Counted from the stretch's first letter, positions 9,388-58,476 are shown. The stretch: DNA of 64,000 bases from Nitrosopumilaceae archaeon (GCA_965208905.1 OZ242365.1:320001-384000); one strand, 5' to 3'. Made by a program: numbers and translations. The notes: generated by a model not told the origin, from the letters alone.

Positions 9388-10981
9388 ATAATTTCTTTTT
9401 GGAGTCGTGTCTATGATATGAACTATGCCTATAAGTAGCGGGGTTCCTCCCGCAAAGTCGGGTGATTACACCCCCCGCCATGCGGGATAGCCTGTCAGCC
9501 CAGTTGCTCCAGCAACCCTGTATGAGTGGTGTGGGATCGAGGATTACATCCACACCACGACGGACTTCGCCCAGACTGGCCGAAACCTTACGACCATATC
9601 GGGATACGGCGCTTGTTCGCCGTATGTTCTCCACTGCGTTGACGTCGCGATCTACGCCAACCGTATGGCAGCGGGTGCAGTCTTTTTTATGATAAGCTCC
9701 AGTTAGTGGGGTTCTACATGCAGCACATAGCTTGGATGTGTTGTGTGGACGCATATGTAATGCCTCTACTCCCAAAAATTGGGACTTTTCATAAATTAAA
9801 TTCGATGCTTTTCGCATCATGGCAGAATGTAACCTGCGACGCATATTATGGCCAAACTTCCCATTCTTCTGCCAACCATACGATATATGGGTTAAATCCT
9901 CCAACATCACCAAGCACCCGGATTGTGCGGCCCACTGTGCTATACATAACGCTATCACATTCAGCACATGTTCGTGGTGGCGCATGGCTTTGGCCACCCT
10001 GCGCTTTTTAGCATTCTTCCTTGATTTTGTGTGGTTATGTGGTATGCTCAATATGCATCTGCTCATCTGCTTCTTTATCTCGGCGGCCCTCTTGTGTTTG
10101 CCCTCCCTCTTGAGTTTATTGTATCTGCGTTTGAGTTTGCTGTGTAACTTGTGACCACCATGTGTGACTTGTTGCTTTTCTCTGCGCTCCTCCTCTTTCT
10201 TGTGTACAACACACCTTCCGGTACGTGCCGCATATGCGATATTATCATGTGTACGGGTATACGTATTGTTTACATCCTCAGTCTTTGCCCCCTCAATGGC
10301 CTGTATCGTGTATGATAGATCAAACTGTACCATTGTATCTTTATCACCTACGGTGATGTTCTTTTCATTAATATCCACGCCAATTACATCCTTTGGTGTA
10401 CCGCCCACACAGCCCACATCCGTAAGTAGTTCGATAATCTCTGACTTGCCGTGTGGGTGGGATTTTTCAACCTTGGGCACTTTGTTGTAATATGTAATGG
10501 TATATGTGGTTGGCGTGATCCACAACTCTCCCAACTCATTTTGCCCTATTTTACGTACCACATCTGAAGAGACGGGAATTGCTATCATATGTGGGTGTTT
10601 TGATGAGCCAACATTTGCAATAGCCATATATCCACCCGCTATCGGATTCAGCCTCCAATCTTGGTTTTTCAACTTTACAACCGGATTACGAAATATAGGT
10701 TCAGACACCTTCGTGCCCTGCGCAGCCTTTGTATTGTACGTTTTATGGGCGGCAACCCCGTCCCGTATGGCGGTCTGCGTTATGGACGAATATACTTTGG
10801 GGTCAGGGCCGCGCATTATATGATATATTAATGCGTTAACACCATAGGTATTCTTCCCCGTGTTATCTGCTATAATGTACGCCACTTCTGCCACCTTCCT
10901 GACATGTTCAAACACATGTCGCATGCCCAAATTTTTTGTGTATGGACGTGTTACTGCCCTGCTATTTTTGACTAGAGCCAT
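9317..10981 (-). CDS. tnpB: Large TnpB-like RNA-guided endonuclease (about 554 aa)
   Basis: RuvC IGVDINEKN / VMLEDLT / DRDVNAVENI, Zn finger CAAC...CTRC, TATA TTAAATAC about 22 bp upstream. ORF reads through the right TIR. Confidence 0.85.
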   Translation of the reverse strand: MALVKNSRAVTRPYTKNLGMRHVFEHVRKVAEVAYIIADNTGKNTYGVNALIYHIMRGPDPKVYSSITQTAIRDGVAAHKTYNTKAAQGTKVSEPIFRNPVVKLKNQDWRLNPIAGGYMAIANVGSSKHPHMIAIPVSSDVVRKIGQNELGELWITPTTYTITYYNKVPKVEKSHPHGKSEIIELLTDVGCVGGTPKDVIGVDINEKNITVGDKDTMVQFDLSYTIQAIEGAKTEDVNNTYTRTHDNIAYAARTGRCVVHKKEEERREKQQVTHGGHKLHSKLKRRYNKLKREGKHKRAAEIKKQMSRCILSIPHNHTKSRKNAKKRRVAKAMRHHEHVLNVIALCIAQWAAQSGCLVMLEDLTHISYGWQKNGKFGHNMRRRLHSAMMRKASNLIYEKSQFLGVEALHMRPHNTSKLCAACRTPLTGAYHKKDCTRCHTVGVDRDVNAVENIRRTSAVSRYGRKVSASLGEVRRGVDVILDPTPLIQGCWSNWADRLSRMAGGVITRLCGRNPATYRHSSYHRHDSKKKLCGGCSHVHDGNKIVCGCIYITTR

Positions 10982-11057
10982 CACATAGTACGGTTCAATA
11001 ACGTATTTAACACTATCCAACACACATCAACTATCACCCGACTTTGCGGGAGGAATC
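9442..11057 (-). mobile_element. TnpB element A: non-autonomous element with 25-bp TIR and 8-bp TSD
   Basis: TIR GGTTCCTCCCGCAAAGTCGGGTGAT at 9442-9466 and its inverse (1 mismatch) at 11033-11057. TSD AGTAGCGG at 9434-9441 and 11058-11065. Confidence 0.9.
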
Positions 11058-11098
11058 AGTAGCGGTAAGGCTTTTATGGATTGTAAAAACCGCATATT

Positions 11099-11410
11099 AT
11101 GATGCCCAGTTGCCCTGAATGCACTGCCACCGAGAAGAAGAAGGTTCAAGCTAGATACGAAGCTAGTGTTCCCGAGGAGGATCGCCGACGTGATGATTTG
11201 TACAAACTCTTTGATGCCATAGACTTTCCCATGAAGGCGGATCCAAGCACTAAGCACTTTATCTGTAAACGATGTGGATTATACGCTACCAGAGAGCAAG
11301 TCTCCGATATACGAGCCAGACTGAACCGTCGGGTAAAGACCCGTCAGGACATACAGGATGATTATTTAGACTGGTGGCAAAAGAGCAAAAAAGACAAAAA
11401 TTTAGCTTGA
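11099..11410 (+). CDS. Conserved thaumarchaeal Zn-finger hypothetical protein
   Basis: CPEC...CKRCG, DYLDWWQ tail. Confidence 0.75.
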   Translation: MMPSCPECTATEKKKVQARYEASVPEEDRRRDDLYKLFDAIDFPMKADPSTKHFICKRCGLYATREQVSDIRARLNRRVKTRQDIQDDYLDWWQKSKKDKNLA

Positions 11411-11412
11411 TA

Positions 11413-12177
11413 TTATTTATTAATTGATTTTCTAAAGACTTTAGCTATTATACTATCTGTTAGAAACGGTATTGCGTGTTTTATTATTACGCCGGCCCTG
11501 GCTATAGTGGGAACCGTTATCTCTGCCCGGGGAGAGTTTGAAGCTCGCAGTATGGCTTTGGCAACTGATTGTGGACTTAAAGCATATCCGGATTTGTCTA
11601 CAAATCCGGTGCGCACCATTATGGGACTGACCACCGTCACACCTATACCGCTTTCTAATAATTCATGTCGCAGTCCCTCTGAAAATCCCAGCATTGCAGA
11701 TTTTGATGCGCAGTATGCAGATATCATGGGAAGTCCAAAACTGGCGGCTAGTGATGCCACATTGACTATGTGCCCACTCCCCCTTTGCACCATATGTGGT
11801 AAAAGACCCTTTGTCATGTATACCATACCAAAATAATTTGTATTCATTATTTGTTTTATTTTAGAAATATCTGTATTTATGACAGTATCAATCTCTATTA
11901 TGCCTGCATTATTTACCAATATGTCGGGGCAGCCTATCTGGTCCAGTACGCGTTTTATAGTCTGGTTTACCTGTTGTTGATCTGTTACATCACATTTTAT
12001 TATAGTTATTTGGCCATTATCTTTTTTTATTTTTTTGTATAACGACTCTAAGAGATCTTCTCTTCGTGCTATGGCGATTACATGGGCCTTTTTATTGGCA
12101 AAGAGCAAGCTCGTTTCCCATCCTATACCTGAAGATGCACCGGTTACAAGGACTATTTTGTCATCAAATTTGGCCAT
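11413..12177 (-). CDS. Short-chain dehydrogenase/reductase
   Basis: TGASSGIG, NNAG, YCASK. Confidence 0.92.
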   Translation of the reverse strand: MAKFDDKIVLVTGASSGIGWETSLLFANKKAHVIAIARREDLLESLYKKIKKDNGQITIIKCDVTDQQQVNQTIKRVLDQIGCPDILVNNAGIIEIDTVINTDISKIKQIMNTNYFGMVYMTKGLLPHMVQRGSGHIVNVASLAASFGLPMISAYCASKSAMLGFSEGLRHELLESGIGVTVVSPIMVRTGFVDKSGYALSPQSVAKAILRASNSPRAEITVPTIARAGVIIKHAIPFLTDSIIAKVFRKSINK

Positions 12178-12239
12178 GTATCATATTGTCGCATATGGGT
12201 TATTTTGATTTTTTTATCACATGCATGAGATATAGACTA

Positions 12240-12390
12240 TGGCAATCAATTCGACACTAATCGTGGAGTAATTCTTCTTTCCATAGAAACATGCCTGAAG
12301 CCTCAGAGATGCGTTGGCATCTTTCTCTTTTTTGCATATTTCACGTATTGTTATATTGGCATGAAGTCGTCACCTTTGGGAAGTCATTTG
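12240..12390 (-). pseudogene. Possible transposase N-terminal HTH remnant (IS630-like)
   Basis: Minus strand translates to EICKKEKDANASLRLQACFYGKKNYS, which resembles KEKDxxxxxRLxA N-termini of IS630-type proteins; interrupted. Confidence 0.3.
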
Positions 12391-12564
12391 TTATTTATCA
12401 TAAAATTAGTAGTTCACACCGGTACTGTATATAGTAGGTTTTTATGCGAATTTAAATTATGACTTTGTAAGAACTTCAATCATGGCCACCATACAGTAGT
12501 GTTGATGTAAAAGTGAATTTTTATTAAGTATTTATTTTTATTTTTTAAAAAAATAAGTTATTTC

Positions 12565-13332
12565 CTAAATTACCAAAGAAAGAATGTTAGACGTAAACTC
12601 TCCAATATTGGTAGTATACAAGACAATGATACCCATCACCATGCTAAATACTCCTGCCGCATACCTAAAGAGTAATCGTACCCTCTTATGACGGCCTGCC
12701 AATACCAAAGGAATACCCAATAGACCACCCACCAGAGACATTCCAATTGTGGCACCTAAACCAAAGACAAGTGTGAATGCCAGTACAATGTCAGGCCCTT
12801 CCAGTGTAGCGGCAGTCAAGACTATAACGCCTCCACTTCCGGCTAGACCATGCACAAGTCCTATTATGTATGACTTGTGGGTATGGTGGTGTATTCCATT
12901 ATTATGCTCATGTTCGTGGGAATGAACTATTCCATTATTATGCCTGTGAAGGTGCTTGTGAGCAAATTCTAAAGGTGTCTTACCAAACACTACAGTTACA
13001 CCCAATATTAACAGTATCACACCCACCAGTATCTCTAGTCCAGAAAACATCCAACCTTGAATTAGTGATGCGGCCACATAAGCCAGTATTGAAAACAGTG
13101 CCAAAGTTGTGGCATGACCTGCTCCCCATACTGCACCCAGTATGGAGAAGCGTTGCATACTCTCTCGAATTCTTGTTCGTCGTGATTTGTCGACATGTTC
13201 TGCTCTAGCACTTAGGGCGCTCACTGTGGCAATATGATCTGGTTCCAGCGCATGCTGTAAACCCAAAATCAAACCCAGTCCCAATGCAAATGCAGGTGTA
13301 AGCATACCCACATCTGGAGATACATCCACCAT
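12565..13332 (-). CDS. HoxN/HupN/NixA/UreH-type nickel/cobalt transporter
   Basis: HALEPDH, His-rich loop HKHLHRH...HSHEHEH...HHHTH, GLVHGLAGSG. Confidence 0.88.
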   Translation of the reverse strand: MVDVSPDVGMLTPAFALGLGLILGLQHALEPDHIATVSALSARAEHVDKSRRTRIRESMQRFSILGAVWGAGHATTLALFSILAYVAASLIQGWMFSGLEILVGVILLILGVTVVFGKTPLEFAHKHLHRHNNGIVHSHEHEHNNGIHHHTHKSYIIGLVHGLAGSGGVIVLTAATLEGPDIVLAFTLVFGLGATIGMSLVGGLLGIPLVLAGRHKRVRLLFRYAAGVFSMVMGIIVLYTTNIGEFTSNILSLVI

Positions 13333-19604: not shown

Positions 19605-19643
19605 AATGCAAGAATAGCTCTTCTAACTAATATAGTTTCAAGA

Positions 19644-21109
19644 GGGAATTATATACAAAAGTACACAACCCCAATTCTGAGAGTTAATGCCTGAACCACG
19701 GATCGCGTCCATACAACTCCCCTTAAATACCAGCATACCGTATTATATATTATGATACGAATAGTTAAGGTACCGCTACGGAGAGATGTGCGGTTCGCGG
19801 AGTGGGCGCACCGCACGAATCATGCGTCAAGATATGTGTACAACCGCGCCGTATCAGAGTATTTGTTTGGCGGCGAATACATGGAGAGGGTGGTAGTGGA
19901 CATCCTGCAGCCCTTTAAACTACCGGGCAAGCTGGATTTTACATCAGGTATGCTGGACGATGACTACCATACATATGATTTTGGGCCGTCAAAGAGGGCA
20001 TTAAAGTACGGCATGTTCAAGCAGCTTACGGAGTGGCGCGCTGAACATGCATGGGTATCTGACTTGCCTATGGTGTTTGGCAGGGGCGCCATACAGGATG
20101 CCTCCGTCGCATGTAGACGAGTTGTAGATGACAACTCCGGCCACGCGCCATACCGCCGCAAAGATGGCCGCATCATACTTAGTTCCGTTACACCGCCTGT
20201 ACGGAAAGATAGCCATACGGTACATATCCCCGGATATGGTATTGTAGAGACCGCCAATCCCATCAATGTATTATGGGACATGCGGTCATTCAAGATAGTT
20301 GATGTTACCAAACGGGTGGACAAGCATACCGTACAATCAGACCACATGTTTGAGCTGCATATTGCCATATATGAACCGATGGAACCGCACCGTACTACGG
20401 GTACAATACGGGGTGTCGATGTGGGAGGCAAGCACCTCGCCGTCACGGTAGATACGGACGGCAACGTTACAATACACAACACCCGCCATAGAGCAATCCT
20501 GCGGGAGATTGACGCTCTCAAGAGTTTGCGCGACCGCAAGACACGGCATGGCCGGAAGTGGCATATATTGAATGACCAAATAAAGCGGCTATACAGGAAG
20601 GCCAACAACATAGCTGCGAACACCATAAATCAGACGATTGTACAGATAACCAATGGTGTGGACGCAGTCGTGGTCGAATCGCTCTCCGTAAAGGATATGA
20701 CCACCCATGGCGGGAATTACAAACGCGCCATGAACCGTTCAATGCGGGAGAACCATGTTGGGGAGTTCCTGCGCAAGCTTGCGCAGTGGTGTGATATACA
20801 CAACATACCGCTGTTGGGGGCATCGGCCAAATATACGAGCCAGACGTGCCATGTGTGTGGGACGGTGGATGCCGAGTCGCGTATATCACGCGACAAATTC
20901 ATTTGCACTAATTGTACCAGGGTATTCCACGCGGATGTCAATGCCGCCTGGAATATTCTGTATAGGGCGGCGGGGAAGATCGTCCTAAGACGGCCAGGGC
21001 ACAAGGAGGACTACAAGCCAACACCTTCTATGCTCCACTGTATACAGAAAAGTCGTCAGAAAAGGCATGAGTGTACAGCCGAGGCTGTGTACTTTTGTAT
21101 ATAATTCCC
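19644..21109 (+). mobile_element. TnpB element B: 24-bp perfect TIR and 8-bp TSD
   Basis: TIR GGGAATTATATACAAAAGTACACA at 19644-19667 and its inverse at 21086-21109. TSD TTTCAAGA at 19636-19643 and 21110-21117. Confidence 0.93.
19752..21104 (+). CDS. tnpB: TnpB-like RNA-guided endonuclease (450 aa)
   Basis: SRYVYNRA, GVDVGGKHL / VVESLSV / HADVNAAWNI, CHVC...CTNC. Stop codon lies inside the right TIR. Confidence 0.92.
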   Translation: MIRIVKVPLRRDVRFAEWAHRTNHASRYVYNRAVSEYLFGGEYMERVVVDILQPFKLPGKLDFTSGMLDDDYHTYDFGPSKRALKYGMFKQLTEWRAEHAWVSDLPMVFGRGAIQDASVACRRVVDDNSGHAPYRRKDGRIILSSVTPPVRKDSHTVHIPGYGIVETANPINVLWDMRSFKIVDVTKRVDKHTVQSDHMFELHIAIYEPMEPHRTTGTIRGVDVGGKHLAVTVDTDGNVTIHNTRHRAILREIDALKSLRDRKTRHGRKWHILNDQIKRLYRKANNIAANTINQTIVQITNGVDAVVVESLSVKDMTTHGGNYKRAMNRSMRENHVGEFLRKLAQWCDIHNIPLLGASAKYTSQTCHVCGTVDAESRISRDKFICTNCTRVFHADVNAAWNILYRAAGKIVLRRPGHKEDYKPTPSMLHCIQKSRQKRHECTAEAVYFCI

Positions 21110-21111
21110 TT

Positions 21112-21381
21112 TCAAGATATTAGGAATATCAGATATATGGAACCGCCCATCAAGCTAAAGCCCAGGCCCATATATACAACCCGATTATTCTTGTCATATG
21201 TTGACTTCCAGAGTAGTACGCCTCCTAAAAGGCCCAAGAGCAGCACAAATACGCCGGCAATAAGCATGTCACCATCGGTACCAGATACTAGAGGCTGAAA
21301 AAGGCCTGACAACAGCATAAAGAATACTATCAAGTATACGTACTTGAAGGAGGATAATGATTTTGTTGTATTTTCAGGCAA
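21112..21381 (-). CDS. Small membrane protein
   Basis: 89 aa, 3 TM; stop codon lies within the TSD of element B. Confidence 0.7.
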   Translation of the reverse strand: MPENTTKSLSSFKYVYLIVFFMLLSGLFQPLVSGTDGDMLIAGVFVLLLGLLGGVLLWKSTYDKNNRVVYMGLGFSLMGGSIYLIFLIS

Positions 21382-21418
21382 CTACAAACAGTACGAACAA
21401 AAGTCGGTAATAAATTTA

Positions 21419-21790
21419 GGGAATTATATACGAAGTTAACGCCAATTGGTGTCAATCTTGTCTTGTCCTAGAGCCTTTGATAGTGGCGCGTATGGTGTTG
21501 CATCTCTTTCGAGATCAGCAGCTGCTGCCAAGTGTCTGCCGCCAACACCAACACCCCGCATATTGCCAGTCTTTTTTGGTTTGTACGACACTACTATGCA
21601 TTTGGTTATCTCCCCGCCAAGTAGGTATGATGAGACAGTGTTGTTGTAAACATACCATAAAATGTATGATTCGTGCGGACGGTCCACTCGTATAGTTTTG
21701 TGTTATGCTACAATCTTACCTTGTAGACCGTGTCATGGGTTCCTTTTAGAGGTGACTTTGTATATTGCGCTACTTTCGTGTATGATTCCC
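21419..21790 (-). mobile_element. Internally deleted (MITE-like) derivative of the GGGAATTATATAC TnpB family
   Basis: GGGAATTATATACGAAG at 21419, degenerate inverse TTTCGTGTATGATTCCC ending at 21790, TSD TAAATTTA at 21411-21418 and 21791-21798. Interior encodes YVYNNTVSSYLLGGE and GVGVGGRHLA, similar to TnpB B. Confidence 0.85.
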
Positions 21791-21795
21791 TAAAT

Positions 21796-23490
21796 TTACA
21801 TCATGCCGCCCATATCAGGCATACCACCCATGCCGGGCATTCCTCCCATACCACCCATACCAGGCATACCGCCTTCGGCTCCAGGTGGAGGTCCTGCAGA
21901 CTTTGCAGTGGTAATAACATCATCTATGCGCAATAGCATACAGGCAGCTTCGGTGGCAGCCATGACTACTTGTAGTTTGACAGAGAGTGGTTCAATAATC
22001 TCGCTCTCCTTCATATCAGAGACCGCAGCCTTTGTTACATCAATACCAACCCATCGCTCACCCTTCAAATGGCGGCTTCGTAGGGAGGTCAGTGTATCAA
22101 TGGGATCCATGCCTGCATTCTCTGCCAAAGCCAGTGGTATGGACTCCATGCTGTCGGCGAACTTTTCTGCAGCCAACTGTTCACGGCCATCTAACGTATT
22201 AGACCAATTCTGTAAGCTTGTGGCGACAAATGTCTCGGGAGCTCCACCCCCAGCCACAACTGATGGTCTTAGTGTAACGTCTCGAACCACCATCAACGCA
22301 TCATGTACAGAACGTTCTACTTCATCTACAACTCTTTGTGAGCCTCCCCGGAGCAGTATGGTAACGGATTTTGGATTGTCACAACCTCGTATAAAGACCC
22401 ACTTGTCTTCTTCAATCTTTTGTTCCTCAACAACTTCTGCTACGCCTAGCTTGACACTGGGCAAGTCGTCGAGATTGGTAACTATCTGTGTGCCGGTAGC
22501 CTTGGCTAACTTTGTCAAGTCACTCTCTTTGATACGACGTACTGCCAAGACACCTGCCTTTGCTAGATAGTGTTGAGCCATATCATCAATTCCTTTCTGG
22601 CACAAGACTACGTTGGCGCCGCTGCCAACAATCTTGTCAACCATGGACTTTAACATTCGGTTCTCTTCTTCCAAAAAGATCTTTATTTGTTGGGGGTTTG
22701 AGATGTTTATCTTGGCATCCGTCTCGGTCTTGTTTATCTCCAAAGCAGAGTTTAACAGTGCAATTCGGGCATTTGATACTCTGCGTGGCATTCCACCATG
22801 GACTATCTCTTTGTCCAAAACCACTCCCTTTACAATCTCAGAGTTTTTAATTGAGGCACCTGCCTTCTTCTCCACCTTTATATCATCAACATCTACCTTG
22901 TAATCACCATCATCTTTCTCTGTAACTGACATTACAGCTTGTACCACAATATCTGCGAGTTGATCTGAATCGCTCTTTACTAGTTTTGTTTGCATGGCAG
23001 TTCGTGCCACCTTCTTTAGAGTATCCACATCATCAGCAGACACAGTCTCGCTGATCTCAGCCAAGAAGGAACCTGCCTGCTTTGAGGCCTTTCTGTAGCC
23101 ATCCACAATTATGGTAGGGTGTACATCCTGATTAACCAAAACCTCAGCATTCTCCAATAGGGCACCTGCCAAGACCACTGCAGATGTAGTTCCATCACCC
23201 ACCTCATTATCGGTAGTCTTTGAGATCTCGACGAGCATCTTTGCGGCAGGGTGTTGTACATCTATCTCTTTGAGTATGGTGGCGCCATCATTGGTTATTG
23301 TGACATCGCCCAAAGAGTCCACCAACATCTTGTCCATTCCTCGAGGGCCTAGACTCGTACGTACTATCTCGGCGATTATCTTTGATGCTGCAATGTTGTT
23401 CTTGTGAGCATCACGTCCTTTTGTCTCAGTAGAACCATCTTTTAGTAGCACTACGGGCATCTTTCCCTGAGAAGCCATTTGTACACTCAT
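21796..23490 (-). CDS. ths: Thermosome (group II chaperonin) subunit
   Basis: [19 protein letters not shown]-repeat tail. Confidence 0.97.
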
Positions 23491-27507: not shown

Positions 27508-27578
27508 TATATTGTAGTCTCCATATACGCTTTAAAATCCATACCATGCGGCAGATAAACAAAAGTTTATGCATAATG

Positions 27579-27705
27579 GGTTCCTCTCGCAAAGACGGGT
27601 GGTGACGATAGTGTCTCGTATGATAGTCCCCAGTAAGGACACCGCGACAGACTGCGCAAAGTTTGGAAGTATGATAGGGGTTCATTTTAACGGCTTCGGC
27701 CCCTA
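27579..27705 (-). pseudogene. Truncated family-A TnpB remnant with right TIR
   Basis: GGTTCCTCTCGCAAAGACGGGTGGT at 27579 matches TIR A. Minus strand reads LGAEAVKMNPYHTSKLCAVCRGVLTGDYH vs LGVEALHMRPHNTSKLCAACRTPLTGAYH in TnpB A. Confidence 0.8.
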
Positions 27706-32057: not shown

Positions 32058-33477
32058 GGGAATTATATACCTGGGTAGACAAGGCTAGTTCTGGAGGGTA
32101 CATGTTTATAAAGTATTATGATGTATAAAACTACATGTATCGATCTTATGGCTTCCGCGTAAACCTGACGCGCTCTCAGGCGCGTCACATATCCAAAATA
32201 CGGGACTCACAGCGGTTCGTGTACAACTGGGCCGTGGAGCGGCTGCTTACTAACCCCACACTCACTACATATGACCTCTCCAGAGAGTTCACCAAGGTGA
32301 GGCGTTCCGTATCGTGGCTGCAAACAGTGGAGCGCATATACCAAAATACGGCCATCCATCAGGCCCGCACTGCTGCGGATGTCTCGAACAAATACGGCAA
32401 CGGCGAGCTGAGTTTCCGCGCCAGAAAGCGCGATAATAAAAAGGCAGTATCATGTGATGTACAGCCGCGATTTGTGGACAACAGGCACGCGTCATTGCCG
32501 GGCCTTGGTGTTGTTGAGTTGCCTGAGGAGCAGCCATATCAATTTCCACACAACTGGCTGTATGGCTCAAGGTCTTTCCATTTGGTGCAGGTTACACCAA
32601 AGTCGTGGGGGCACGTCAAGTCATGTGACCATATCTATCGGCTGCACATAACATATGACGTACCAGTACCCGAACGGCGCGCCAAGACCGGTGTTGTTGC
32701 CGGCATAGACAGGGGGATAACAAATCCAACGGTTGTCTGTAAGACAGACCACAACACTTCGTGTATAATATCGTATGACACGGCAACCGCATTCCGCACG
32801 AACCGTACATGGAATGATGGTGTGCGCCGTACCATATCACACCACAACAAGCATTCTCATACAACACACAAGATGAAACGCAAACGAGAAAAGTACAATC
32901 GTGGTAATGCGAATGACCGCGAGTATGCGGAGTGGCTTCTAGCCAAGAAGATATGCGAGGGCGTGGATGTAATATATGTCGAACAGCTCAACCTTGAGGC
33001 CATGAGCAGGCGCGGTGGTAGGCACAAGAAAGGTCTGAACAGGGGAATGAGGTTTATTCGGCATTATGCAATATTGCGAAAGATCCGCACCATCGCAGAG
33101 CGGCTGGGCATCCGTGTAGTAGAGGTAAGTCCAAAGCACACAAGCCAGGAGTGCAGTGTGTGCGGCTACACAAACAAGGAGAACCGAGACGGGGAGATGT
33201 TCAAGTGTCTCAAATGTGACCACGTGGCAAACGCCGACGGCAATGCGTCGGTGAATATGATTCAACGGGGGACCGGTATGAAGGTTCCCGCGGGGGAAGG
33301 AATGGCCCTCGAAAGGCGTGAAATGGGCCGGACCCGGAAGCCACCTGTTTGTGCAGTTCCGGACGCCAGACGGCGGCGTGAGAATCAAGCGTGCAATCGA
33401 CCCAAAACATCAAGCGTCATGAAGCACCTGGGAATGTACGCGTATGTTACGCGTGCATACCCAGGTATATAATTCCC
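32058..33477 (+). mobile_element. TnpB element C: 20-bp perfect TIR and 8-bp TSD (7/8)
   Basis: TIR GGGAATTATATACCTGGGTA at 32058-32077 and its inverse at 33458-33477. Flanks TTGTTTAT (32050-32057) and TTGTTCAT (33478-33485). Confidence 0.9.
32135..33472 (+). CDS. tnpB: TnpB-like RNA-guided endonuclease (445 aa)
   Basis: QRFVYNWA, AGIDRGIT / IYVEQLN / NADGNASVNM, CSVC...CLKC. Stop codon lies in the right TIR. Confidence 0.92.
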   Translation: MYRSYGFRVNLTRSQARHISKIRDSQRFVYNWAVERLLTNPTLTTYDLSREFTKVRRSVSWLQTVERIYQNTAIHQARTAADVSNKYGNGELSFRARKRDNKKAVSCDVQPRFVDNRHASLPGLGVVELPEEQPYQFPHNWLYGSRSFHLVQVTPKSWGHVKSCDHIYRLHITYDVPVPERRAKTGVVAGIDRGITNPTVVCKTDHNTSCIISYDTATAFRTNRTWNDGVRRTISHHNKHSHTTHKMKRKREKYNRGNANDREYAEWLLAKKICEGVDVIYVEQLNLEAMSRRGGRHKKGLNRGMRFIRHYAILRKIRTIAERLGIRVVEVSPKHTSQECSVCGYTNKENRDGEMFKCLKCDHVANADGNASVNMIQRGTGMKVPAGEGMALERREMGRTRKPPVCAVPDARRRRENQACNRPKTSSVMKHLGMYAYVTRAYPGI

Positions 33478-46930: not shown

Positions 46931-48490
46931 TTGAATGGTATTGTGTTTGTCTTAATAGCGGCACTGATATTGGGCTCAACGAGTCTGGTGTATGGCCAGA
47001 ATACAGACACAGTAGTGGTACTGCAGACAGAGCAAGGTCCGCTGGTTATCGAGTTCTTCCCTGAAGATGCACCAAATCATGTAGCAAACTTTATTGAACT
47101 ATCTCGTAGCGGCTTTTATGACAACACCTTATTTCATCGCATCATACCTAACTTTATGATACAGGGTGGAGATCCGCACACAAAGCCCGATTCCGGAGTC
47201 GGACAAGACCGGTGGGGTATGGGCGGACCCGATGCCACCTTAGATGCAGAGTTTAATGATATAATGCACAATCGTGGCATAGTATCCATGGCCCGCTCCA
47301 GTGACCCAAATAGTGCAGGTTCACAGTTCTTTATAGTACATCAGGACTCTAACTTTTTAGATGCATCATATACGGTCTTTGGTCGTTTAGCTACTGCTGA
47401 GAGTTATGAAACATTGGATGCCATAGCTGGTATAGAGGTGGATGCCATAGACCGTCCCGTATCGCCAGACTTGGTTCGAATAATCTCTGCGCAGGTGTTG
47501 ACTCGTGATCAGGTTGCCGATATACAAGATATGGACCCGCCCCTGCGAATGCAATCAGGTTTTGAGGAGCCTTCTTCCAGTGGAGAGTATACAAGTGAGA
47601 TATACAACTTTTCCATTAAATTTCCTGAAGGGTGGGTAGTACAAAATATCGATAGTGAAGGCGGACCAAACATAGCAGCAGTAAGTTCTAGTGATGCTCC
47701 GATACCTCCAAGTATCGCTGTATACATCGAAGAGGCCGGCAATCACACGATAAATACTGTTCGTGAGAGCAAACTCGCAGACGTAGAGGCGATGGGGGAC
47801 AGTCTGCAGATTGTAAATCATGAGCTGACGACCATAAACAACTTTGATGCGTTTGTATTAGATGCCACTGGTATATTTGATATAGGTACTGGGCCTTTTG
47901 ATATTGGATATCGCGAAGTGACCATAGTGTCATCAGGTAAAATCTACACTTTTCTGTTTAGCTCAGTCTTGAGTGACTATGACTCAGATGTGCGCTCCTT
48001 TTCTGAATCATTAGATTCGTTTACAGTGTTAACGGTAGATACTCCTGAAGAGACTCCAGCCGAGGAGCCTGATGATACAACATCAGAAGGGGGCGGGTGT
48101 CTAATTGCGACTGCAGCCTTTGGCTCGGAACTATCTTCTCCCATACAACAACTTCGGGAGCTGCGGGATGAGACATTGATGCAGACTGATGCCGGATACA
48201 GTTTTGTAACTGGATTTAACACCATATATTACACGTTCAGTCCCAGTATAGCAGATTATGAGCGTGAAAATCCTCTATTTCGTGACTTGGTACGCCTCTC
48301 CATAACACCGATGATACATACACTATCAATACTGACTCTTGTGGATATGAATAGTGATATTGAAGTTGTTGTGTATGGCGTTTCGGTCATACTTTTGACA
48401 CTGTTGATATATGTTGGTCCACCCATTCTAGCCGCTATATTGATACGTCGCAGAGTAGCACCATACAGCACATCACCAAAAGTCGTCTAA
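46931..48490 (+). CDS. Exported cyclophilin-type peptidyl-prolyl isomerase with PsbP-like and CFI-box C-terminal domains
   Basis: FHRIIPNFMIQGGDP, SMAR..DPNSAGSQFF; GGGCLIATAAFGSE...LRELRD. Confidence 0.88.
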   Translation: MNGIVFVLIAALILGSTSLVYGQNTDTVVVLQTEQGPLVIEFFPEDAPNHVANFIELSRSGFYDNTLFHRIIPNFMIQGGDPHTKPDSGVGQDRWGMGGPDATLDAEFNDIMHNRGIVSMARSSDPNSAGSQFFIVHQDSNFLDASYTVFGRLATAESYETLDAIAGIEVDAIDRPVSPDLVRIISAQVLTRDQVADIQDMDPPLRMQSGFEEPSSSGEYTSEIYNFSIKFPEGWVVQNIDSEGGPNIAAVSSSDAPIPPSIAVYIEEAGNHTINTVRESKLADVEAMGDSLQIVNHELTTINNFDAFVLDATGIFDIGTGPFDIGYREVTIVSSGKIYTFLFSSVLSDYDSDVRSFSESLDSFTVLTVDTPEETPAEEPDDTTSEGGGCLIATAAFGSELSSPIQQLRELRDETLMQTDAGYSFVTGFNTIYYTFSPSIADYERENPLFRDLVRLSITPMIHTLSILTLVDMNSDIEVVVYGVSVILLTLLIYVGPPILAAILIRRRVAPYSTSPKVV

Positions 48491-49795
48491 CTCGGCCTCG
48501 GTCTCATACTCTTTGACTTTCTTGTTGTTGGTAAACTTTAGTCTGGATATATCCCTATCAAATATGGCATCGCCGGTCCAGTCTAATATGAGTCGAATCT
48601 TTTTGGAGAAGGTCGGTACTTTGGTGATAAATAGATTCCTCCACATCATCCAAGCTAGAATCCCTCCCACACTCATGCCAAAGAGAGAGGCTATTCCGGA
48701 GCGTTTTCCTATTAGGGCCATATGTGATTTATGTTTGAACTCATAGGTACGTATGGGTTTGCCGTTTATTATTGAGACTAAATTGTCTGCTACACATTTA
48801 GCTTGAGATGAAGCCACTTGAGCAGTGGGTGGCAATGGTTTACCATCCACATCATGAAATAATGCACAGTCTCCTGCAACAAAGACGTTTTTGTACTCCT
48901 TGGCCTCTAGATGGTCGTCTACTTCTATCTTTCCTTGTTTTGTCTTGAAGACAGATCTCTTTACGGTATTCACTGGTGTGACACCTGCCGTCCATATCAC
49001 TGTTTTAGTATGTATGTCATCATGCATGTTACCATCGACATCCTCTACTCCAACAGTATCCCCATCAAAAGATACTACGACAGTCCTTAAGCGAACATCA
49101 ATGCCATCTTGTAGTATCTTTGTATGAGCAATGTGGGCCAGTTTTTTAGTAATACTAGGCAGTATGACATCGCCCGATTCCAGAACTATAACATGTATCT
49201 CCTCCCTTGATATGGTATGGTAGTACTTGACGGCATCCGTTAAAAGGTCATGCAGCTCGCCTGCCGTCTCTATACCTGCAAAACCTCCCCCCACGATTAC
49301 AATTGTAAGCAGACTCTTTTTTATATCGGGATCACTTTCATTATCGGCCTGTTCTAATATGTCAATTACTCTGTTTCGTACATCGACCGCATCTTTTAGT
49401 GTCTTCATCTTAAACGAGTTATCCTCCACGTCTTGCATACCAAAGAAGTTAGTCTCACTACCTAAAGCCACCACTAAAAAATCATAGTCTAGTGTAATGC
49501 CATGCCTTTCAGGAGTGCCCCACAGACTCACCTTTTGGGATACTGGGTCTATGCCCTGTACTCTGTTCTCATAAAATTTTGTCTTCTTTAATATGGTTCG
49601 AATTGGTATCACAATATTTCTGGTCTGCACCATACCAGAGGCTACTTGCGGTAGAAGGGGCGTAAATAGTAAAAAGTTGTCTTCACTGACCAGTGCAATC
49701 TCGGTTGATGAGTTACTTCGCACGTGCTTCTCTATTCTACGGGCGCACTCGACCCCCGCAAAACCACCACCTAATATCACTATCCTTTTTTTCAT
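48473..49795 (-). CDS. Type II NADH dehydrogenase-like FAD oxidoreductase, paralog 1
   Basis: GGGFAG twice, FTPLLP, WTAG, AGD, PPTAQVA. Confidence 0.88.
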   Translation of the reverse strand: MKKRIVILGGGFAGVECARRIEKHVRSNSSTEIALVSEDNFLLFTPLLPQVASGMVQTRNIVIPIRTILKKTKFYENRVQGIDPVSQKVSLWGTPERHGITLDYDFLVVALGSETNFFGMQDVEDNSFKMKTLKDAVDVRNRVIDILEQADNESDPDIKKSLLTIVIVGGGFAGIETAGELHDLLTDAVKYYHTISREEIHVIVLESGDVILPSITKKLAHIAHTKILQDGIDVRLRTVVVSFDGDTVGVEDVDGNMHDDIHTKTVIWTAGVTPVNTVKRSVFKTKQGKIEVDDHLEAKEYKNVFVAGDCALFHDVDGKPLPPTAQVASSQAKCVADNLVSIINGKPIRTYEFKHKSHMALIGKRSGIASLFGMSVGGILAWMMWRNLFITKVPTFSKKIRLILDWTGDAIFDRDISRLKFTNNKKVKEYETEAELDDFW

Positions 49796-49821
49796 TACAC
49801 ATGAAATATAGCAAATTTTAC

Positions 49822-50573: not shown

Positions 50574-51899
50574 TTACCAAAAGTCATCCAACGCCTGTAA
50601 TGTCTCATACTCTTTGACTGGGGCGTCTCTCATTATCTTTAGTCTGGATATGTCTCGATCAAAGAGGGCATCCTGAAACCAGTCCATCAACAATCTAACA
50701 CGTTTGGATATTGAAGGCATCTTTGATAGATATACATTTCTCCACAATAACCAAGCAGTCATTCCTTGAATGTTCAACCCAAAGATGGATGCAATGCCTG
50801 TTCGCTTGCCAATTATCGCCATCTGTCCTCGGGGTGTGTATGTGAACTCTTCCATCGAATTATTATTTATTAATAAGAATAGATTGGAGGCTATTTTTTT
50901 GGCTTGAGCCTCGGCCAATTGGGCGGTGGCCGCAAATGGTTTCTGTGTGGCCGGATCTATACATAATGCGCAGTCTCCAGCTGCAAATACGCCTTTGTAT
51001 CCATCAGCTTCTAGATATTCATTTATCAGCATTTTACCCTTCTCGGTCTTGAATATTGACCGTTTTATTGTATTTGTAGGAGTAACACCTGCCGTCCATA
51101 TCACCGTCTTTGTAGATATGTTGTCTGTCATTTGATCATCCAAGTTTTTAGTGGTTATTGTAGCTCCATCAAATCCAGTCACTGCTGTTCGAAGGTTTAT
51201 CTCTATACCCCTCTGTATCATCTGGTTCTTTGTAAATTGAGCCAGTCTTTGAGAGAAGCCGGGTAGTATGGTAGGCAAGGCCTCCAGCACCTTTACAGAT
51301 ATGTCACTCATACTTATTTTAGGATAATATTTTGTTGCATCGTTTAGAAAATCATTCAGCTCTCCCGCCGTCTCTATACCTGCAAAGCCACCTCCAACTA
51401 TAACAATGGTCAAGAGACTCTTTCTTGTCTCGGTATCAGGTTCATTGTTGGCCTGCTCCAGCATATCTATAATACGGTTGCGCACAATGACTGCATCGTT
51501 CAATGTCTTCATTCTAAAGGCATTATTCTCCAAGTCATTCATACCAAAAAAGTTGGTCTCACTACCTAAAGCCACCACCAGATAATCATAATTTAATACA
51601 ATGCCGGGCTTCTCGGGTGTACCCCACAAACTTATCCGGCGTGCAACAGGGTCTATGTGCCTTACCCTCCCCTCATAAAATGTTGTTTTTTTAATCATAG
51701 CCCTTATCGGTATGACTATATTTCTGGTCTGCACCGTTCCAGAGGCCACCTGAGGCAGCATTGGTGTGAATAATAAAAAGTTGTCTTCGCTGACCAGTAT
51801 AATCTCGGTTAAAGAGTTACTTCGCATGCGCTTCTCTAGTCTACGGGCGCACTCGACCCCCGCAAAACCACCACCTAATATTATAATTGTCGTTTTCAT
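50574..51899 (-). CDS. Type II NADH dehydrogenase-like FAD oxidoreductase, paralog 2
   Basis: Same motifs as 48473-49795. Confidence 0.88.
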   Translation of the reverse strand: MKTTIIILGGGFAGVECARRLEKRMRSNSLTEIILVSEDNFLLFTPMLPQVASGTVQTRNIVIPIRAMIKKTTFYEGRVRHIDPVARRISLWGTPEKPGIVLNYDYLVVALGSETNFFGMNDLENNAFRMKTLNDAVIVRNRIIDMLEQANNEPDTETRKSLLTIVIVGGGFAGIETAGELNDFLNDATKYYPKISMSDISVKVLEALPTILPGFSQRLAQFTKNQMIQRGIEINLRTAVTGFDGATITTKNLDDQMTDNISTKTVIWTAGVTPTNTIKRSIFKTEKGKMLINEYLEADGYKGVFAAGDCALCIDPATQKPFAATAQLAEAQAKKIASNLFLLINNNSMEEFTYTPRGQMAIIGKRTGIASIFGLNIQGMTAWLLWRNVYLSKMPSISKRVRLLMDWFQDALFDRDISRLKIMRDAPVKEYETLQALDDFW

Positions 51900-55227: not shown

Positions 55228-55308
55228 AATGTAACTACTGATAGTTGATATTTAACTTTTAAGGATTCAAAACAGCAGCGTTAAATGTGCAACTACACTA
55301 TGTAGTGT

Positions 55309-55953
55309 ATGTTATTGGATTTGACATTGGAGATGTCCGATACACTGCCTGTGTTCCCAGGCTCGCCATCAATGCACACGATACCATGGAGCACCATAAA
55401 AGGGGAGGGATACAACTCTGAGATGTTGTTTCTAAGTTCACATTTGGGAACTCATATGGACGCACCATATCACTTTAGACAAGATGGTCTACGCATACAC
55501 CAAATCCCCCTGAATGTATTGGTTGGTAGAGCCACACTGCTTCATATACATAAAGATGCCAACGGGTATATTCAAAGAGACGATATTATACGGTGGCAGA
55601 AGGAAAACTGTACAATTCCGCACGGCTCGCCGGTAATATTTCGGACCGGGTGGCAGACGCACATCAATGATGACAATTACTTTTCTGAGAATCCAGGTCT
55701 TTCAAAGGACGCGGCCGAATATTTGGCATCCATATCAGTCTCACTGGTGGGGATGGACTCGCCTAGCATTGATGCTGGATTGGATGCTACATTTCCTGCG
55801 CACCACATATTGGCTCGTGCAGGTACGATAAATGTGGAAAATCTTGCCCATCTCGACAAGATACCAGGTATGCAATTTAACTATATTATTTTGCCCCTCA
55901 AAATATTAGACAGTACAGCTTCGCCAGTTCGAGCAGTAGCAGTCTTAGAATAA
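55309..55953 (+). CDS. Cyclase family protein (kynurenine formamidase-like)
   Basis: HLGTHMDAPYH, RTGW, GMDSPSID, ENL, SPVRA. Confidence 0.9.
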   Translation: MLLDLTLEMSDTLPVFPGSPSMHTIPWSTIKGEGYNSEMLFLSSHLGTHMDAPYHFRQDGLRIHQIPLNVLVGRATLLHIHKDANGYIQRDDIIRWQKENCTIPHGSPVIFRTGWQTHINDDNYFSENPGLSKDAAEYLASISVSLVGMDSPSIDAGLDATFPAHHILARAGTINVENLAHLDKIPGMQFNYIILPLKILDSTASPVRAVAVLE

Positions 55954-55985
55954 TTTTAAAAGGATTATTGCTTGTGTGTATATGC

Positions 55986-56486
55986 ATGAGTCGGCCTGGA
56001 AATCTATGGAGAAGCATACATGGACGTGTCACACGCCGACCCACCAACTTCTCTTGGGTCTTACCAGACATATTGGCGGGATCAGGGTTTCCCACCTCAG
56101 AGAATGAGTTTGAGTGGTTGTTAAGTCAGGGAGTAGAATGTGTGGTTACAATGACCGAGGAACCACTACCAAAATCATGGACTAATAATGTACAATACAA
56201 ACACACTCCCACGCCAGACATGACGGCTCCCACGCCAGAAGAGATAGATGAGACTGTAGATTTTATACATCAGAATATAATAGCAAAGAGGCCGGTCATG
56301 GTGCACTGCGCAGCGGGTCTGGGACGGGCGGGAACCATTCTAGCATGCTATCTGATAAAATACAAGGATTATGATGCGCAGCAGGCCATCGACACCATAC
56401 GAAGAGAGAGGCACGGCTCCATACAGTCAGAGGTACAGGAGATTGCCATCTCTATGTATAAAAAACACACACTTCAGGACACTTGA
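55986..56486 (+). CDS. Dual-specificity protein phosphatase
   Basis: VHCAAGLGRAG. Confidence 0.92.
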   Translation: MSRPGNLWRSIHGRVTRRPTNFSWVLPDILAGSGFPTSENEFEWLLSQGVECVVTMTEEPLPKSWTNNVQYKHTPTPDMTAPTPEEIDETVDFIHQNIIAKRPVMVHCAAGLGRAGTILACYLIKYKDYDAQQAIDTIRRERHGSIQSEVQEIAISMYKKHTLQDT

Positions 56487-56614
56487 GATTGTAGTCTTCC
56501 ATCCTGTATACTGATTATAACTCGCCGGCCCTCTTGAAACTGCAATATTATCTGGTCGTTCTCCTCTTGTACGCCCACTAGTTCGGTCATCTTGAGTTTT
56601 TCATAGTCAGCCAT
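56474..56614 (-). CDS. Small hypothetical protein (46 aa; below ORF-track cutoff)
   Basis: MADYEKLKMTELVGVQEENDQIILQFQEGRRVIISIQDGRLQSQVS; pattern similar to the upstream neighbour. Confidence 0.5.
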   Translation of the reverse strand: MADYEKLKMTELVGVQEENDQIILQFQEGRRVIISIQDGRLQSQVS

Positions 56615-56619
56615 CTCAA

Positions 56620-56772
56620 TCACTCGGGTATCGATATGGTCTGTATCTTGCCATCTTCAGCCTTTACAAACAAAAACCGATTATCTTTAAAGATGAAGGT
56701 GATTCCTCCTTCCTTGTCTGGTTCTTCCACTTCTAGGAGAGGTTGTCCTAGTAGACCATCATACTTTGCCAT
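56620..56772 (-). CDS. Small hypothetical protein (50 aa; below ORF-track cutoff)
   Basis: MAKYDGLLGQPLLEVEEPDKEGGITFIFKDNRFLFVKAEDGKIQTISIPE; TATA-like tataaaaa upstream. Confidence 0.6.
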   Translation of the reverse strand: MAKYDGLLGQPLLEVEEPDKEGGITFIFKDNRFLFVKAEDGKIQTISIPE

Positions 56773-56971
56773 ACAATCTACACTTGAGCGACTTTTTTAT
56801 ATCTTAGGTTCCTCTGATCAATATACAGTGTGCCACCTGCACTATCCAAAAGGGGTATTAGTCATTATGATGATACGGCATTATTCCGGCTGTCCTCCCC
56901 GTATTGTACACTCCAATATCTGAGCACTACGCATGCGTTTTATCTCTAGTGTATAACTACATCTTAGTCTA

Positions 56972-58456
56972 TGAGCTGGTAACTAAACGTCGCGTAGGTT
57001 ACCGGCCTGCCGTGCGGCAGATGTTGGTGGCGAACCACCATCCAGAGGAGTTACATTGAGACGTTCTTTGTTGGCTGGACTTTGACGCCCGACCTTTGGA
57101 CATCCTGTACCGGCCATCACGTCGTTAACACTTGGAGGAGGCATGCAAGTGCCAAGATGTATCTTCCCTCTCAAGACCATTCCGGCCTTGTCTTGCAGCG
57201 CGTAAACGGCTTGCGCACGCTTAGACCACTGCACTGTGTAAAAAGTGAATAATATGTTGAATGCCGCGTTGACATCCGCGTGCATCAGAACACCGCAATC
57301 ATAACACCGAAACTGGCTGCTTTTGCGCCATGTGTTTGTGTTGCCGCATACACAGCACTGTTGTGAGGTGCCTTTCTGGTCTATCTCGACATACTCTGTA
57401 TTATACTTGAGTGATTGTTGCGCAAGCAAGTTCCGCGCCTCACCACACTTGCTTTGTCGCATCAATTTATTCTTGGCTTTCTGACCCTTCCCTTTTGTGG
57501 TCATGGTTCTGAGGTTCATGCCCTCCATGATGATTTTATCGCACTGCAGCATCAGTTTTTTGGAGAACTTGCGCAGATCATCCATCTGTTTATTTCCCAT
57601 CTTCTTGTAGACCGATTGCAGCTGCGCATGCAAGTTGCGCCACTTGTGAGAATGAAGCTTGCACCGCGCCATCTTCTTTTGTGTTCGCGCGATGTTCCGC
57701 ATGGTATCTTTTTCACGAAGTGTCAGCATCGCAATACCCCCATCCGACTTTCCAACTATAAGCGTGTGCTTGCCGCCCATGTCAATACCCGCGTGTATGC
57801 CGGTACATACACGGTCCGGGACGTGCTCACGAATAGTTACGTGCAACTCGAACTGCCTCTCTTTATCATCGTGATTTGTAACATCCACAATCTTGTAGGA
57901 CTGTGAGGATTTTGGAAGCGTGTCCTTTTGCAGTTTGAAGGGTTTGTCGCACTTTGGGAAGTATACAGTATTACCCTTGGACTTTTTGCCCAATGGAACC
58001 GCGCTGTATAGTGGATATATCTTACGCCCGTACTTTACATGTGCACAACCCTCCATCTTATAGCCTTCTTGTATTGCGCCACGAACCCAAGCTTGGGGGA
58101 TTGTCTGGCATATGGTGGCTACTTTATTGGTATCAAATACCGACAGGCCGGCCCGACGCGCCTCAATTCCGGCATTGAGCCACATGTGCGATTCAGAATA
58201 CATGGAGTCAAAGTATTGTGTTAGTTTGGTTGATGTCTTTAAACGGTACTGCAGAGTCCTAATGATGTACTTTTCATCTTTGTACTTCATATATTACACA
58301 TGATTCGGTGATATTTAAGCGGTGTTCCTATCCAAAGGTTGTACAAAGTCCAGCCAACAAAGAACGTCTCAATGTAACTCCTCTGAATGGCGGTTTGCCG
58401 CCAACATCTGCCATACGGCAGGCCGGTAACCTACGCGACGTTTAGTTACCAGCCCA
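56972..58456 (-). mobile_element. TnpB element D: 113-bp TIR and 8-bp TSD
   Basis: IR 56972-57084 vs 58344-58456 (7 mismatches, no indels), ends TGRGCTGGTAAC. TSD TTAGTCTA at 56964-56971 and 58457-58464. Confidence 0.93.
56983..58290 (-). CDS. tnpB: TnpB-like RNA-guided endonuclease (435 aa)
   Basis: GIDMGGKH / IIMEGMN / HADVNAAFNI, CCVC...CYDC. C-terminus and stop codon lie inside the TIR. Confidence 0.9.
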   Translation of the reverse strand: MKYKDEKYIIRTLQYRLKTSTKLTQYFDSMYSESHMWLNAGIEARRAGLSVFDTNKVATICQTIPQAWVRGAIQEGYKMEGCAHVKYGRKIYPLYSAVPLGKKSKGNTVYFPKCDKPFKLQKDTLPKSSQSYKIVDVTNHDDKERQFELHVTIREHVPDRVCTGIHAGIDMGGKHTLIVGKSDGGIAMLTLREKDTMRNIARTQKKMARCKLHSHKWRNLHAQLQSVYKKMGNKQMDDLRKFSKKLMLQCDKIIMEGMNLRTMTTKGKGQKAKNKLMRQSKCGEARNLLAQQSLKYNTEYVEIDQKGTSQQCCVCGNTNTWRKSSQFRCYDCGVLMHADVNAAFNILFTFYTVQWSKRAQAVYALQDKAGMVLRGKIHLGTCMPPPSVNDVMAGTGCPKVGRQSPANKERLNVTPLDGGSPPTSAARQAGNLRDV

Positions 58457-58476
58457 TTAGTCTACCTGTATATCTA
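58344..58476 (+). ncRNA. Putative second (left-end, outward-facing) omega-RNA-like transcript
   Basis: Non-coding inverted copy of the tnpB 3' hairpins with a compensatory change; AT-rich ATATTTAAG at 58311-58319 upstream. Confidence 0.45.

Follow-up and report, generated by a model that had tools for sequence, protein, structure and literature searches.

TnpB-only elements of a Nitrosopumilaceae archaeon share terminal inverted repeats and 8-bp duplications with DDE-type transposons

Introduction

We analyzed a 64,000-nt stretch of DNA from a Nitrosopumilaceae archaeon (GCA_965208905.1 OZ242365.1; hereafter the window, G000:C1:320001-384000) and found four elements whose only gene is tnpB, together with one deletion derivative. 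All five are bounded by terminal inverted repeats (TIRs) and flanked by 8-bp target site duplications (TSDs). We consider it probable that they are non-autonomous DDE-type transposons whose sole gene encodes an RNA-guided TnpB nuclease, that their ends have been re-associated repeatedly, and that they may spread by homing. An initial annotation of the window had proposed that TnpB is carried by unrelated TIR families, as a result of repeated capture or swapping of ends. This proposal held up: the TIR classes match different DDE lineages, no single transposase type accounts for all of them, and the TIR classes do not follow the TnpB phylogeny.

The usual account of TnpB centres on a partnership with scarless HUH or serine transposases. 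The IS200/IS605 and IS607 elements have neither TIRs nor TSDs, and the review that states this argues, in the sections available, that DDE elements gain little from TnpB and treats prokaryotic DDE-TnpB pairs as rare (PMC13565253). Six DDE-associated TnpB branches (DDE-1 to DDE-6) with inverted terminal repeats have been described, and solo tnpB genes with matching ends were read there as trans-mobilisation (PMC10691335, in part). Among DDE families, the main text of that paper names IS630, and the available sections of PMC13565253 name ISL2, IS630 and IS1031. IS1595 occurs in the accessible supplement of PMC10691335 only within a methods list. In eukaryotes, independent capture of Fanzor2 by cut-and-paste transposons has been reported (PMC10711439, in part). 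Our literature searches turned up no paper that links TnpB to IS1595 or IS6-type ends, nor one describing a motif like a target-adjacent motif (TAM) outside a variable TSD.

Results

Anatomy of the elements in the window

The genome (G000) is a single contig of 2.21 Mb with 45.6% G+C and is 99.6% complete. The gene content of the window is archaeal, as seen from a thermosome gene and an archaeal CCA-adding enzyme. The four tnpB-only elements were named A to D in order of position, and positions 9434 and 58464, which delimit the initial annotation, are the outermost TSD bases of A and D.

Element A lies on the minus strand at 9442-11057. It has class II ends (IS6-like type) with a TIR of 23-25 nt, GGTTCCTCCCGCAAAGTCGGGTGAT, whose right copy begins GATTCC, and the TSD AGTAGCGG at 9434-9441 and 11058-11065. 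The listed open reading frame spans 9317-11023 on the minus strand. This frame has no stop within the element and extends 125 nt into the flank (9317-9441), giving 568 aa; most copies of the A family have their stop ~24 nt before the right end and encode 517-523 aa.

Element B, on the plus strand at 19644-21109, carries class I ends (IS1595 type) with the TIR GGGAATTATATACAAAAGTACACA of 24-28 nt and the TSD TTTCAAGA at 19636-19643 and 21110-21117. Its tnpB gene occupies 19752-21104. Close to it, on the minus strand at 21419-21790, is a 372-bp deletion derivative of a B-type element, a miniature inverted-repeat transposable element with the TSD TAAATTTA at 21411-21418 and 21791-21798. Its inner stretches are inverted copies of B. 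Element C (plus strand, 32058-33477) also has class I ends, with an inner part that differs from B. The TIR is a perfect 20-nt repeat, GGGAATTATATACCTGGGTA, the TSD copies TTGTTTAT and TTGTTCAT match at 7 of 8 positions, and tnpB is located at 32135-33472. In both B and C, the tnpB stop codon lies within the right TIR and is the TAA of …ATAATTCCC.

Element D is on the minus strand at 56972-58456, with tnpB at 56983-58290 and the TSD TTAGTCTA at 56964-56971 and 58457-58464. Its class IV TIR measures 114 nt at 94% identity. The ends begin TGAGCTGGTAAC and TGGGCTGGTAAC, and the general end type is TGRGCTG/GGAACTGTC. The TIR arms are located at about 56972-57085 and 58344-58457, and the left end of D therefore carries, in inverted orientation, the final ~100 nt of tnpB coding sequence. 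Elsewhere, other D-family copies have TIRs of 21-54 nt, while those of another family (F14) reach 84 nt. Conversion between ends and a second outward-reading RNA are both possibilities for such long ends.

To put these ends against chance, matches were compared with expectation. For the A end pattern there were 4 matches where 0.2 would be expected, and for the B/C core pattern 9 where 2.2 would be; none of 100 shuffles reached either number. The 12-nt D pattern by itself was not above chance (6 matches, 8.3 expected), and element D stands above chance through its 114-nt inverted repeat and its exact TSD.

TnpB proteins and their copies in the genome

All four window proteins match Pfam Cas12f1-like_TNB (PF07282) above its cut-off, and those of B, C and D also match OrfB_IS605 (PF01385). 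A genome-wide search with the PF07282 profile returned 75 TnpB-domain matches. Among them, 58 TnpBs are full-length (400 aa or more) and form 8 groups, between which identity does not exceed 37%; this bears out the high divergence noted for the four window proteins. The RuvC D, E and D columns are retained in 58/58 of these proteins, and the B protein aligns to the solved TnpB structure 8iaz (E 4e-10). With the RuvC triad and the TNB domain in place, the window proteins are predicted to be TnpB nucleases.

The elements are multicopy. Comparison of the genome with itself gave 15 copies for B (F0), 13 for A (F1), 11 for the D-like family (F4) and 7 for C (F7), and further tnpB-only families have 8 (F6), 4 (F10) and 3 (F14) copies. 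Within families, copies at different sites reach 98-99.9% identity, indicating recent movement. Exact 8-bp TSDs surround 13 class I, 12 class II and 4 class IV tnpB elements genome-wide, and two more in each class have TSDs matching at 7 of 8 positions. Thus, the expectation that every family makes 8-bp TSDs was confirmed. B-type TnpB is present in 5/5 congeners, and at E <= 1e-20 it was found in 0/95 genomes from 26 other genera of the family.

These data bear on whether the elements could be ordinary tnpB elements of the IS200/IS605 or IS607 type (IS1341 group), with a coincidental resemblance to DDE ends. The proteins have bona fide TnpB domains (OrfB_IS605, TNB, HTH_OrfB_IS605), and tnpB-only elements are common in archaea according to the portions of Altae-Tran 2023 available (PMC10691335). 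However, TIRs and TSDs, which IS200/IS605 and IS607 elements lack (PMC13565253, in part), are present here in dozens of copies, with TIRs of 20-114 nt and TSDs of 8 bp. The IS200-type Y1 transposase (PF01797) had no match in the 99.6%-complete genome and none in 5 congeners, and the serine recombinase/resolvase domain (PF00239) had no match in the genome. Together with the 13-nt terminal identity to IS1595 elements and the joint transposition described below, this makes such an origin most improbable.

Class I ends are shared with IS1595-family elements

Class I ends (GGGAATTATATAC…) are borne by B, C and F14. The genome contains four intact IS1595-family transposase genes, with PF12762 scores of 140-142 bits and NF033547 scores of ~176 bits (cut-off 75). 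The autonomous IS1595 elements that contain them are 2.1-2.8 kb long, with ends GGGAATTATATAC/G… or GGGAATTATAGTG… and exact 8-bp TSDs. The 13-nt terminal core GGGAATTATATAC is common to B, C and one of these elements (L014). B and C therefore combine ends shared with IS1595-transposase elements with an 8-bp TSD, as expected of non-autonomous members of the IS1595 family. This agrees with the earlier suggestion that B and C resemble IS1595. Their ends may follow the consensus of the ISNwi1 subgroup, as the initial annotation proposed.

Two of the IS1595-family elements, L014 (1770047-1772736) and L015 (1043578-1046414), carry a passenger gene that fuses an N6/N4 DNA methylase to an HNH nuclease; the gene is split in one copy. 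Another element with an IS1595 transposase is located at 675271-677401.

The IS1595 transposase has 11 relatives in other genomes, from records titled Cenarchaeum sp., Nitrosopumilaceae and several marine bacterial metagenome-assembled genomes. The sequence GGG[AG]ATTATA was located 37-80 bp upstream of the match in 9/11 of them, and exact 8-bp TSDs were present in the 5 that were checked. In congeners, B-like proteins (55% identical) are encoded between GGGAATTATATAC ends with 8-bp TSDs.

Class II ends bound IS6-like elements, and one composite was transposed as a unit

Class II ends (GGTTCCTCCCGCAA…; GGTTCC/T…GCAA) are borne by A and F6. One pair of such ends at 926302-927837 in the genome encloses a frameshifted gene, whose two pieces are 26% and 51% identical to a DDE_Tnp_IS240 protein. 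Pfam gave no match in these fragments. The nearest relatives of the decayed gene, at 65-67% identity, are found in congeners (the tally of relatives included three unpublished genomes, G077, G092 and G093, on which no claim rests).

Intact elements of this type are present in congeners. One of the relatives, in G083, is located in a 1514-bp element with 28-nt TIRs, GGATTCCTCCCGCAAAGACGGGTG, and its best family is IS6 (NF033587, E 5e-17, 62 bits); another, in G043, has a single internal stop. In G065, three 1631-bp copies are 99.9-100% identical, with ends GGTTCT…GCAAAT…CGGG and the TSD GGAGCTCA, and encode a 390-aa IS6-like transposase that scores 84 bits, below the cut-off. PF13610 is above its cut-off in several proteins. 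Short TIRs beginning GGTTC with 8-bp TSDs are thus found in the IS6-like copies of G065 and in the A and F6 elements alike, and A-like proteins of congeners are associated with GGTTCTCTCGAAAA ends. We take GGTTCTG to be the IS6 end consensus. The initial annotation had likened A to IS6. The likeness holds in kind: the same TIR bounds IS6-like DDE elements. Their transposases fall below the NCBIfam IS6 cut-off.

The decayed gene is also part of a composite at 924780-927837 (3058 bp), in which 8 bp (AGCGTTGA) separate an F6 tnpB element from the decayed IS6-like element. One exact 8-bp TSD, TTAAACTC, flanks the composite as a whole. No other distant pair among all class II termini had a common exact 8-mer. 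In the simplest reading, a single transposition event took its two ends from different elements, one from the tnpB element and the other from the DDE element. Joint transposition implies that the same enzyme would accept the ends of both elements.

Class IV and further end classes

Class IV ends are borne by the D family, with the variants TGRGCTGGTAAC, TGGGCTGTGACG, GGAACTGTCCCA and GGAGCTGTCAAA. They recur beside members of a 13-copy gene family encoding SWIM + DDE_Tnp_IS240 proteins (355-461 aa). D-type ends and DDE-adjacent ends are identical at 34/43, 20/26 and 36/40 nt, and in the second of these comparisons the first 12 nt are identical to the D end in the window. A plain inverted-repeat search at the SWIM-DDE genes found no TIRs. 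D had previously been placed near the IS1016 group. This assignment was not upheld: its ends match those adjacent to SWIM + DDE_Tnp_IS240 genes, and no IS1595-type gene in the genome has D-type ends.

A fourth end class, AGAGTTTATGCGTAAT, is borne by F10 and by a frameshifted tnpB pair. Ends of this class, seen at 1564409-1565993 (L029) and 1561191-1562634 (L028), also bound a 1585-bp element with a DDE_Tnp_4 fragment, which is a possible fourth DDE partner.

TIR classes are incongruent with the TnpB phylogeny

The TnpB tree was built from 40 proteins of G000, G065 and G083. Class I ends occur on three clades and class II ends on two. The F14-type proteins (class I) are sister to D (class IV) with support of 99, and the C-type proteins (class I) are sister to the F6-type (class II) with support of 92. 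Forcing class I into one clade cost 49.9 log-likelihood units and was rejected by the approximately unbiased (AU) test (p 4.9e-5), while forcing class II into one clade cost 18.1 units and was marginally rejected (AU p 0.036). The TnpB relatives in congeners retain the TIR class of their clade. TIR class is therefore stable within clades and incongruent with deep TnpB relationships, which calls for several captures or end replacements.

The two routes differ in the number of captures. A single ancestral capture of tnpB by a DDE element could have been followed by end replacement, through recombination or gene conversion with the TIRs of resident insertion sequences. Elements that encode the D protein group (at least 60% identity) show four or more end variants (TGAGCTGGTAAC, TGGGCTGTGACG, GGAACTGTCCCA, GGAGCTGTCAAA), so that the ends change faster than the protein and end replacement is plausible. 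End conversion is indicated by the long TIRs seen sporadically (114 nt in D, 84 nt in F14), and 8-bp TSDs are common to all classes. On the other hand, no hybrid element with two end classes was found, the only composite joins two elements of the same class, and the protein groups, at 37% identity or less, have had ample time for either route. We consider a single capture rather unlikely. It is compatible with repeated re-association of ends, which both routes produce.

A clade-specific motif directly upstream of the left-end TSD

To look for sequence preferences at the insertion sites, every TSD-bearing insertion was oriented with tnpB on the top strand, and the bases directly upstream of the left-end TSD were compared with the mirrored side. 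In the A family, T(-2) and A(-1) were each present in 10/10 insertions (8 full copies and 2 derivatives), and the first TSD base was C in 7/8 full copies. For element A itself the motif reads CTTA in the tnpB orientation (11066-11068, minus strand). The F6 family showed T(-3) in 7/7, T(-2) in 7/7 and G(-1) in 5/7 copies ("ATTG"). In the B family, G(-1) was found in 14/14 insertions ("AT.G") compared with G in 3/14 on the mirrored side. Element B has ATAG at 19632-19635 on the plus strand, and the upstream flank of the 372-bp derivative, in the orientation of B, is GATG.

The motif extends to congeners. The A-like clade of G083 has TTA in 5/5 insertions despite a diverged TIR, and the B-like clade of G065 has G(-1) in 4/5. 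If base composition were the only factor, the probability would be ~2e-15 for the A result (13 full copies from two genomes) and ~5e-9 for the B result (calculated for 13/13 G). Nothing comparable was seen at the mirrored positions beyond the right-end TSD, and the motif is missing from the autonomous copies of IS1595 (4 here, 5 elsewhere) and from the IS6-like copies of G065 (3).

The motif occupies the place where a TnpB TAM would stand, and this suggests a TAM. At an empty site, it would abut the TSD and the right flank, that is, the guide that an RNA read from the right end would carry. At an occupied site, only the 8-bp TSD separates the motif from the left TIR, and the element itself would be spared.

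The one-sided motif might instead reflect a target preference of the DDE transposase or the local context. Both class II tnpB clades have T(-2) and mostly T(-3), the target sites are AT-rich, and IS1595 elements used the TSD AAAATTAT twice, which shows that DDE enzymes have preferences. However, near-identical TIRs should give a symmetric preference, which the mirrored side does not show, and the autonomous copies with the same kinds of ends go without the motif. Moreover, sharers of class I ends differ (G in 14/14 for B, A in 4/5 for C), and in G083 the motif follows the TnpB clade to elements with the diverged end GGTTCTCTCGAAAA…. A transposase preference or local context is thus an unlikely source of the motif.

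A candidate omegaRNA at the right end

The last ~220 nt of C (33258-33477, plus strand) form a candidate omegaRNA scaffold, with a terminal hairpin that has the inner TIR as its 3' arm and is followed by UAUAUAAUUCCC. This part is 76-80% identical to relatives in G065, compared with 48-65% over the rest of the element. The z-score of the terminal hairpin was -3.57 in C and -1.77 in B; for four control windows inside the elements, the values were -0.95 to -1.43 and +0.82. Across five right ends of the C clade, 2 of the 34 predicted pairs are compensatory. In contigs from four sponge metatranscriptome runs, parts of B were covered at low depth, and the right terminus of a different copy is spanned by one contig. 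The tnpB frame reaches to 5-25 nt from the right end, so an omegaRNA from this part would read across the TIR into the flank.

Other features of the window and the genome

The window contains solo ends at 27562-27604 (plus strand), where a class III-like end, AAAGTTTATGCATAAT, is directly followed by a class II end, GGTTCCTCTCGCAAAGACGGGTGG. Partner ends were searched for and none were found; these back-to-back ends appear to be what is left of two elements. Two copies of a 1.06-kb rve-type insertion sequence (1-684 and 5823-6908 of the window; 13 copies genome-wide) bracket about 5 kb of the window start. At 48473-49795 and 50574-51899, there are tandem NDH-2-type paralogues (Pyr_redox_2 + NDH2_C; 440 and 441 aa) with ~68% DNA identity.

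The load of insertion sequences in the genome is very heavy, with 304 repeated intervals of at least 300 bp, and a DUF285 protein family is also repeated. One locus (L109, G000:C1:1098872-1110533) proved to be one C-type tnpB element with the TSD TTGGCACA, split by ~10 kb of nested insertions, which include an rve-type insertion sequence, a SWIM-DDE gene and a 983-aa Eco57I-like methylase gene. This 11.7-kb class I pair was for that reason rejected as a compound transposon. A 4.2-kb class I pair at 791624-795801 was also set aside and may be due to chance, its left end being poor (GAGAATTATATGG) and its 8-mer AT-rich. In the congener G065, a 548-aa TnpB family (L118-L124) has six copies with another end type (…GGCTGTGTCCCACAGAC) and constant GGC/CCT at the junctions.

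Discussion

From the shared ends, we infer that DDE transposases recognising the TIRs mobilise the elements in trans, with insertion producing the 8-bp duplication. IS1595-family enzymes would act on class I ends (B, C and a third group). Class II ends (A and a second group) would be served by a short IS6-like enzyme, and class IV ends (D) by a SWIM/zinc-finger IS240-type DDE enzyme. The module of tnpB and omegaRNA would have been joined to different ends several times, by capture or by end replacement. The omegaRNA, from the 3' part of the gene, would read across the right TIR into the right-hand duplication and its flank. In the empty site, the duplication and right flank are preceded by the left flank, where the surviving insertions carry the clade-specific motif of 3-4 nt. 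TnpB would then cut the empty allele (TAM, duplication and right flank), and repair from the occupied copy would restore or spread the element.

Several observations weigh against this interpretation. The IS6-like transposases score 62-123 bits to NF033587, their best match, under the NCBIfam cut-off of 125, and the only class II DDE copy in this genome is decayed, though A copies are up to 99.7% identical. A DDE gene and tnpB within one simple TIR pair were found in 0/4 IS1595 elements here and in 0/11 relatives. On motif-led inspection, the DDE genes beside class IV ends showed one recognisable end each and no TSD, which makes the class IV link weaker. The phylogeny comes from a 'quick' tree search, and long branches were flagged. 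The motif is weak in D (G(-2) in 5/6) and in C (A(-1) in 4/5), and none stands out clearly in a 444-aa class I family of G065 (n=4). The motifs of the two class II tnpB clades, TTA and TTG, are alike and could therefore partly reflect the class II transposase. The structural support for the omegaRNA is modest (z -1.2 to -3.6; 2/34 pairs compensatory), and an Rfam search of the candidate gave no match. The metatranscriptome contigs carry no information on RNA ends, strand or level, DNA carry-over is possible, and ends of the omegaRNA were not seen. Finally, movement in trans, the omegaRNA, the TAM and homing are all deduced from sequence comparison.

The elements can be compared with known systems. 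They resemble the DDE-associated branches of Altae-Tran 2023 (PMC10691335, in the portions available) in having TnpB within inverted terminal repeats, the 3' end of tnpB near the end of the element and a polyphyletic association with transposases. They differ in their partners, which are IS1595 and IS6-like, in their Nitrosopumilaceae-type host, in the separation of the DDE gene and tnpB into different elements, and in the oriented TAM-like motif outside a variable 8-bp TSD.

Fanzor1 and Fanzor2 also share features with the elements described here. In both cases, a TnpB-type nuclease is the passenger of transposons with TIRs and TSDs in several superfamilies, and the guide RNA overlaps the TIR (PMC3627910 and PMC10711439, each in part). 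Independent captures were likewise inferred from the phylogeny of Fanzor (PMC10711439, in part). In contrast, Fanzor hosts are eukaryotic or viral, and the Fanzor TSD is specific (TA, TTAA) and part of the TAM according to the available text of PMC13565253, whereas the TSD here is variable and the motif lies upstream of it.

Like the IS1341 group, the elements have a single tnpB, multiple copies and a structured 3' end. The lack of a TIR, the lack of a TSD and the dependence on Y1 TnpA that characterize IS200/IS605 (PMC13565253, in part) are all three contradicted here. A Sulfolobus orfB element (PMC4872121) was considered for comparison; it is GG-ended and IS607-like, and was not comparable.

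The IS1595 family includes elements of the 'ISNwi1+' type, whose ends begin GGGAATTAT and which have an 8-bp TSD and extra genes inside the TIRs. In comparison with such passenger-gene elements, the autonomous copies in this genome carry the methylase-HNH passenger, while the tnpB elements are without a DDE gene, having lost it or never had it, and their passenger is a predicted RNA-guided nuclease.

Beyond the published systems compared above, this study adds IS1595 and IS6-like DDE partners, the trace of a joint transposition and a testable TAM prediction, and the genus appears to be an archaeal one with tnpB only in DDE-type frames. With slightly less than even confidence, we put forward that archaeal DDE transposons that make TSDs have acquired RNA-guided homing. 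Either only insertions beside the TAM of the clade would persist, or TnpB would bias DDE insertion. The elements would then be a prokaryotic counterpart of Fanzor that arose several times in one genus by exchange of IS1595 and IS6-like ends.

Contrary to the view that DDE-TnpB pairs are rare in prokaryotes, dozens of active-looking tnpB copies are found here only in DDE-type frames, with three or four DDE lineages. The flank motif gives predicted TAMs for named elements, so their function is testable. If the TAM reading is true, homing by TnpB would need no sequence-specific target of the transposase, and these archaeal elements would provide a natural prokaryotic model for the origin of Fanzor-type associations with cut-and-paste transposons.

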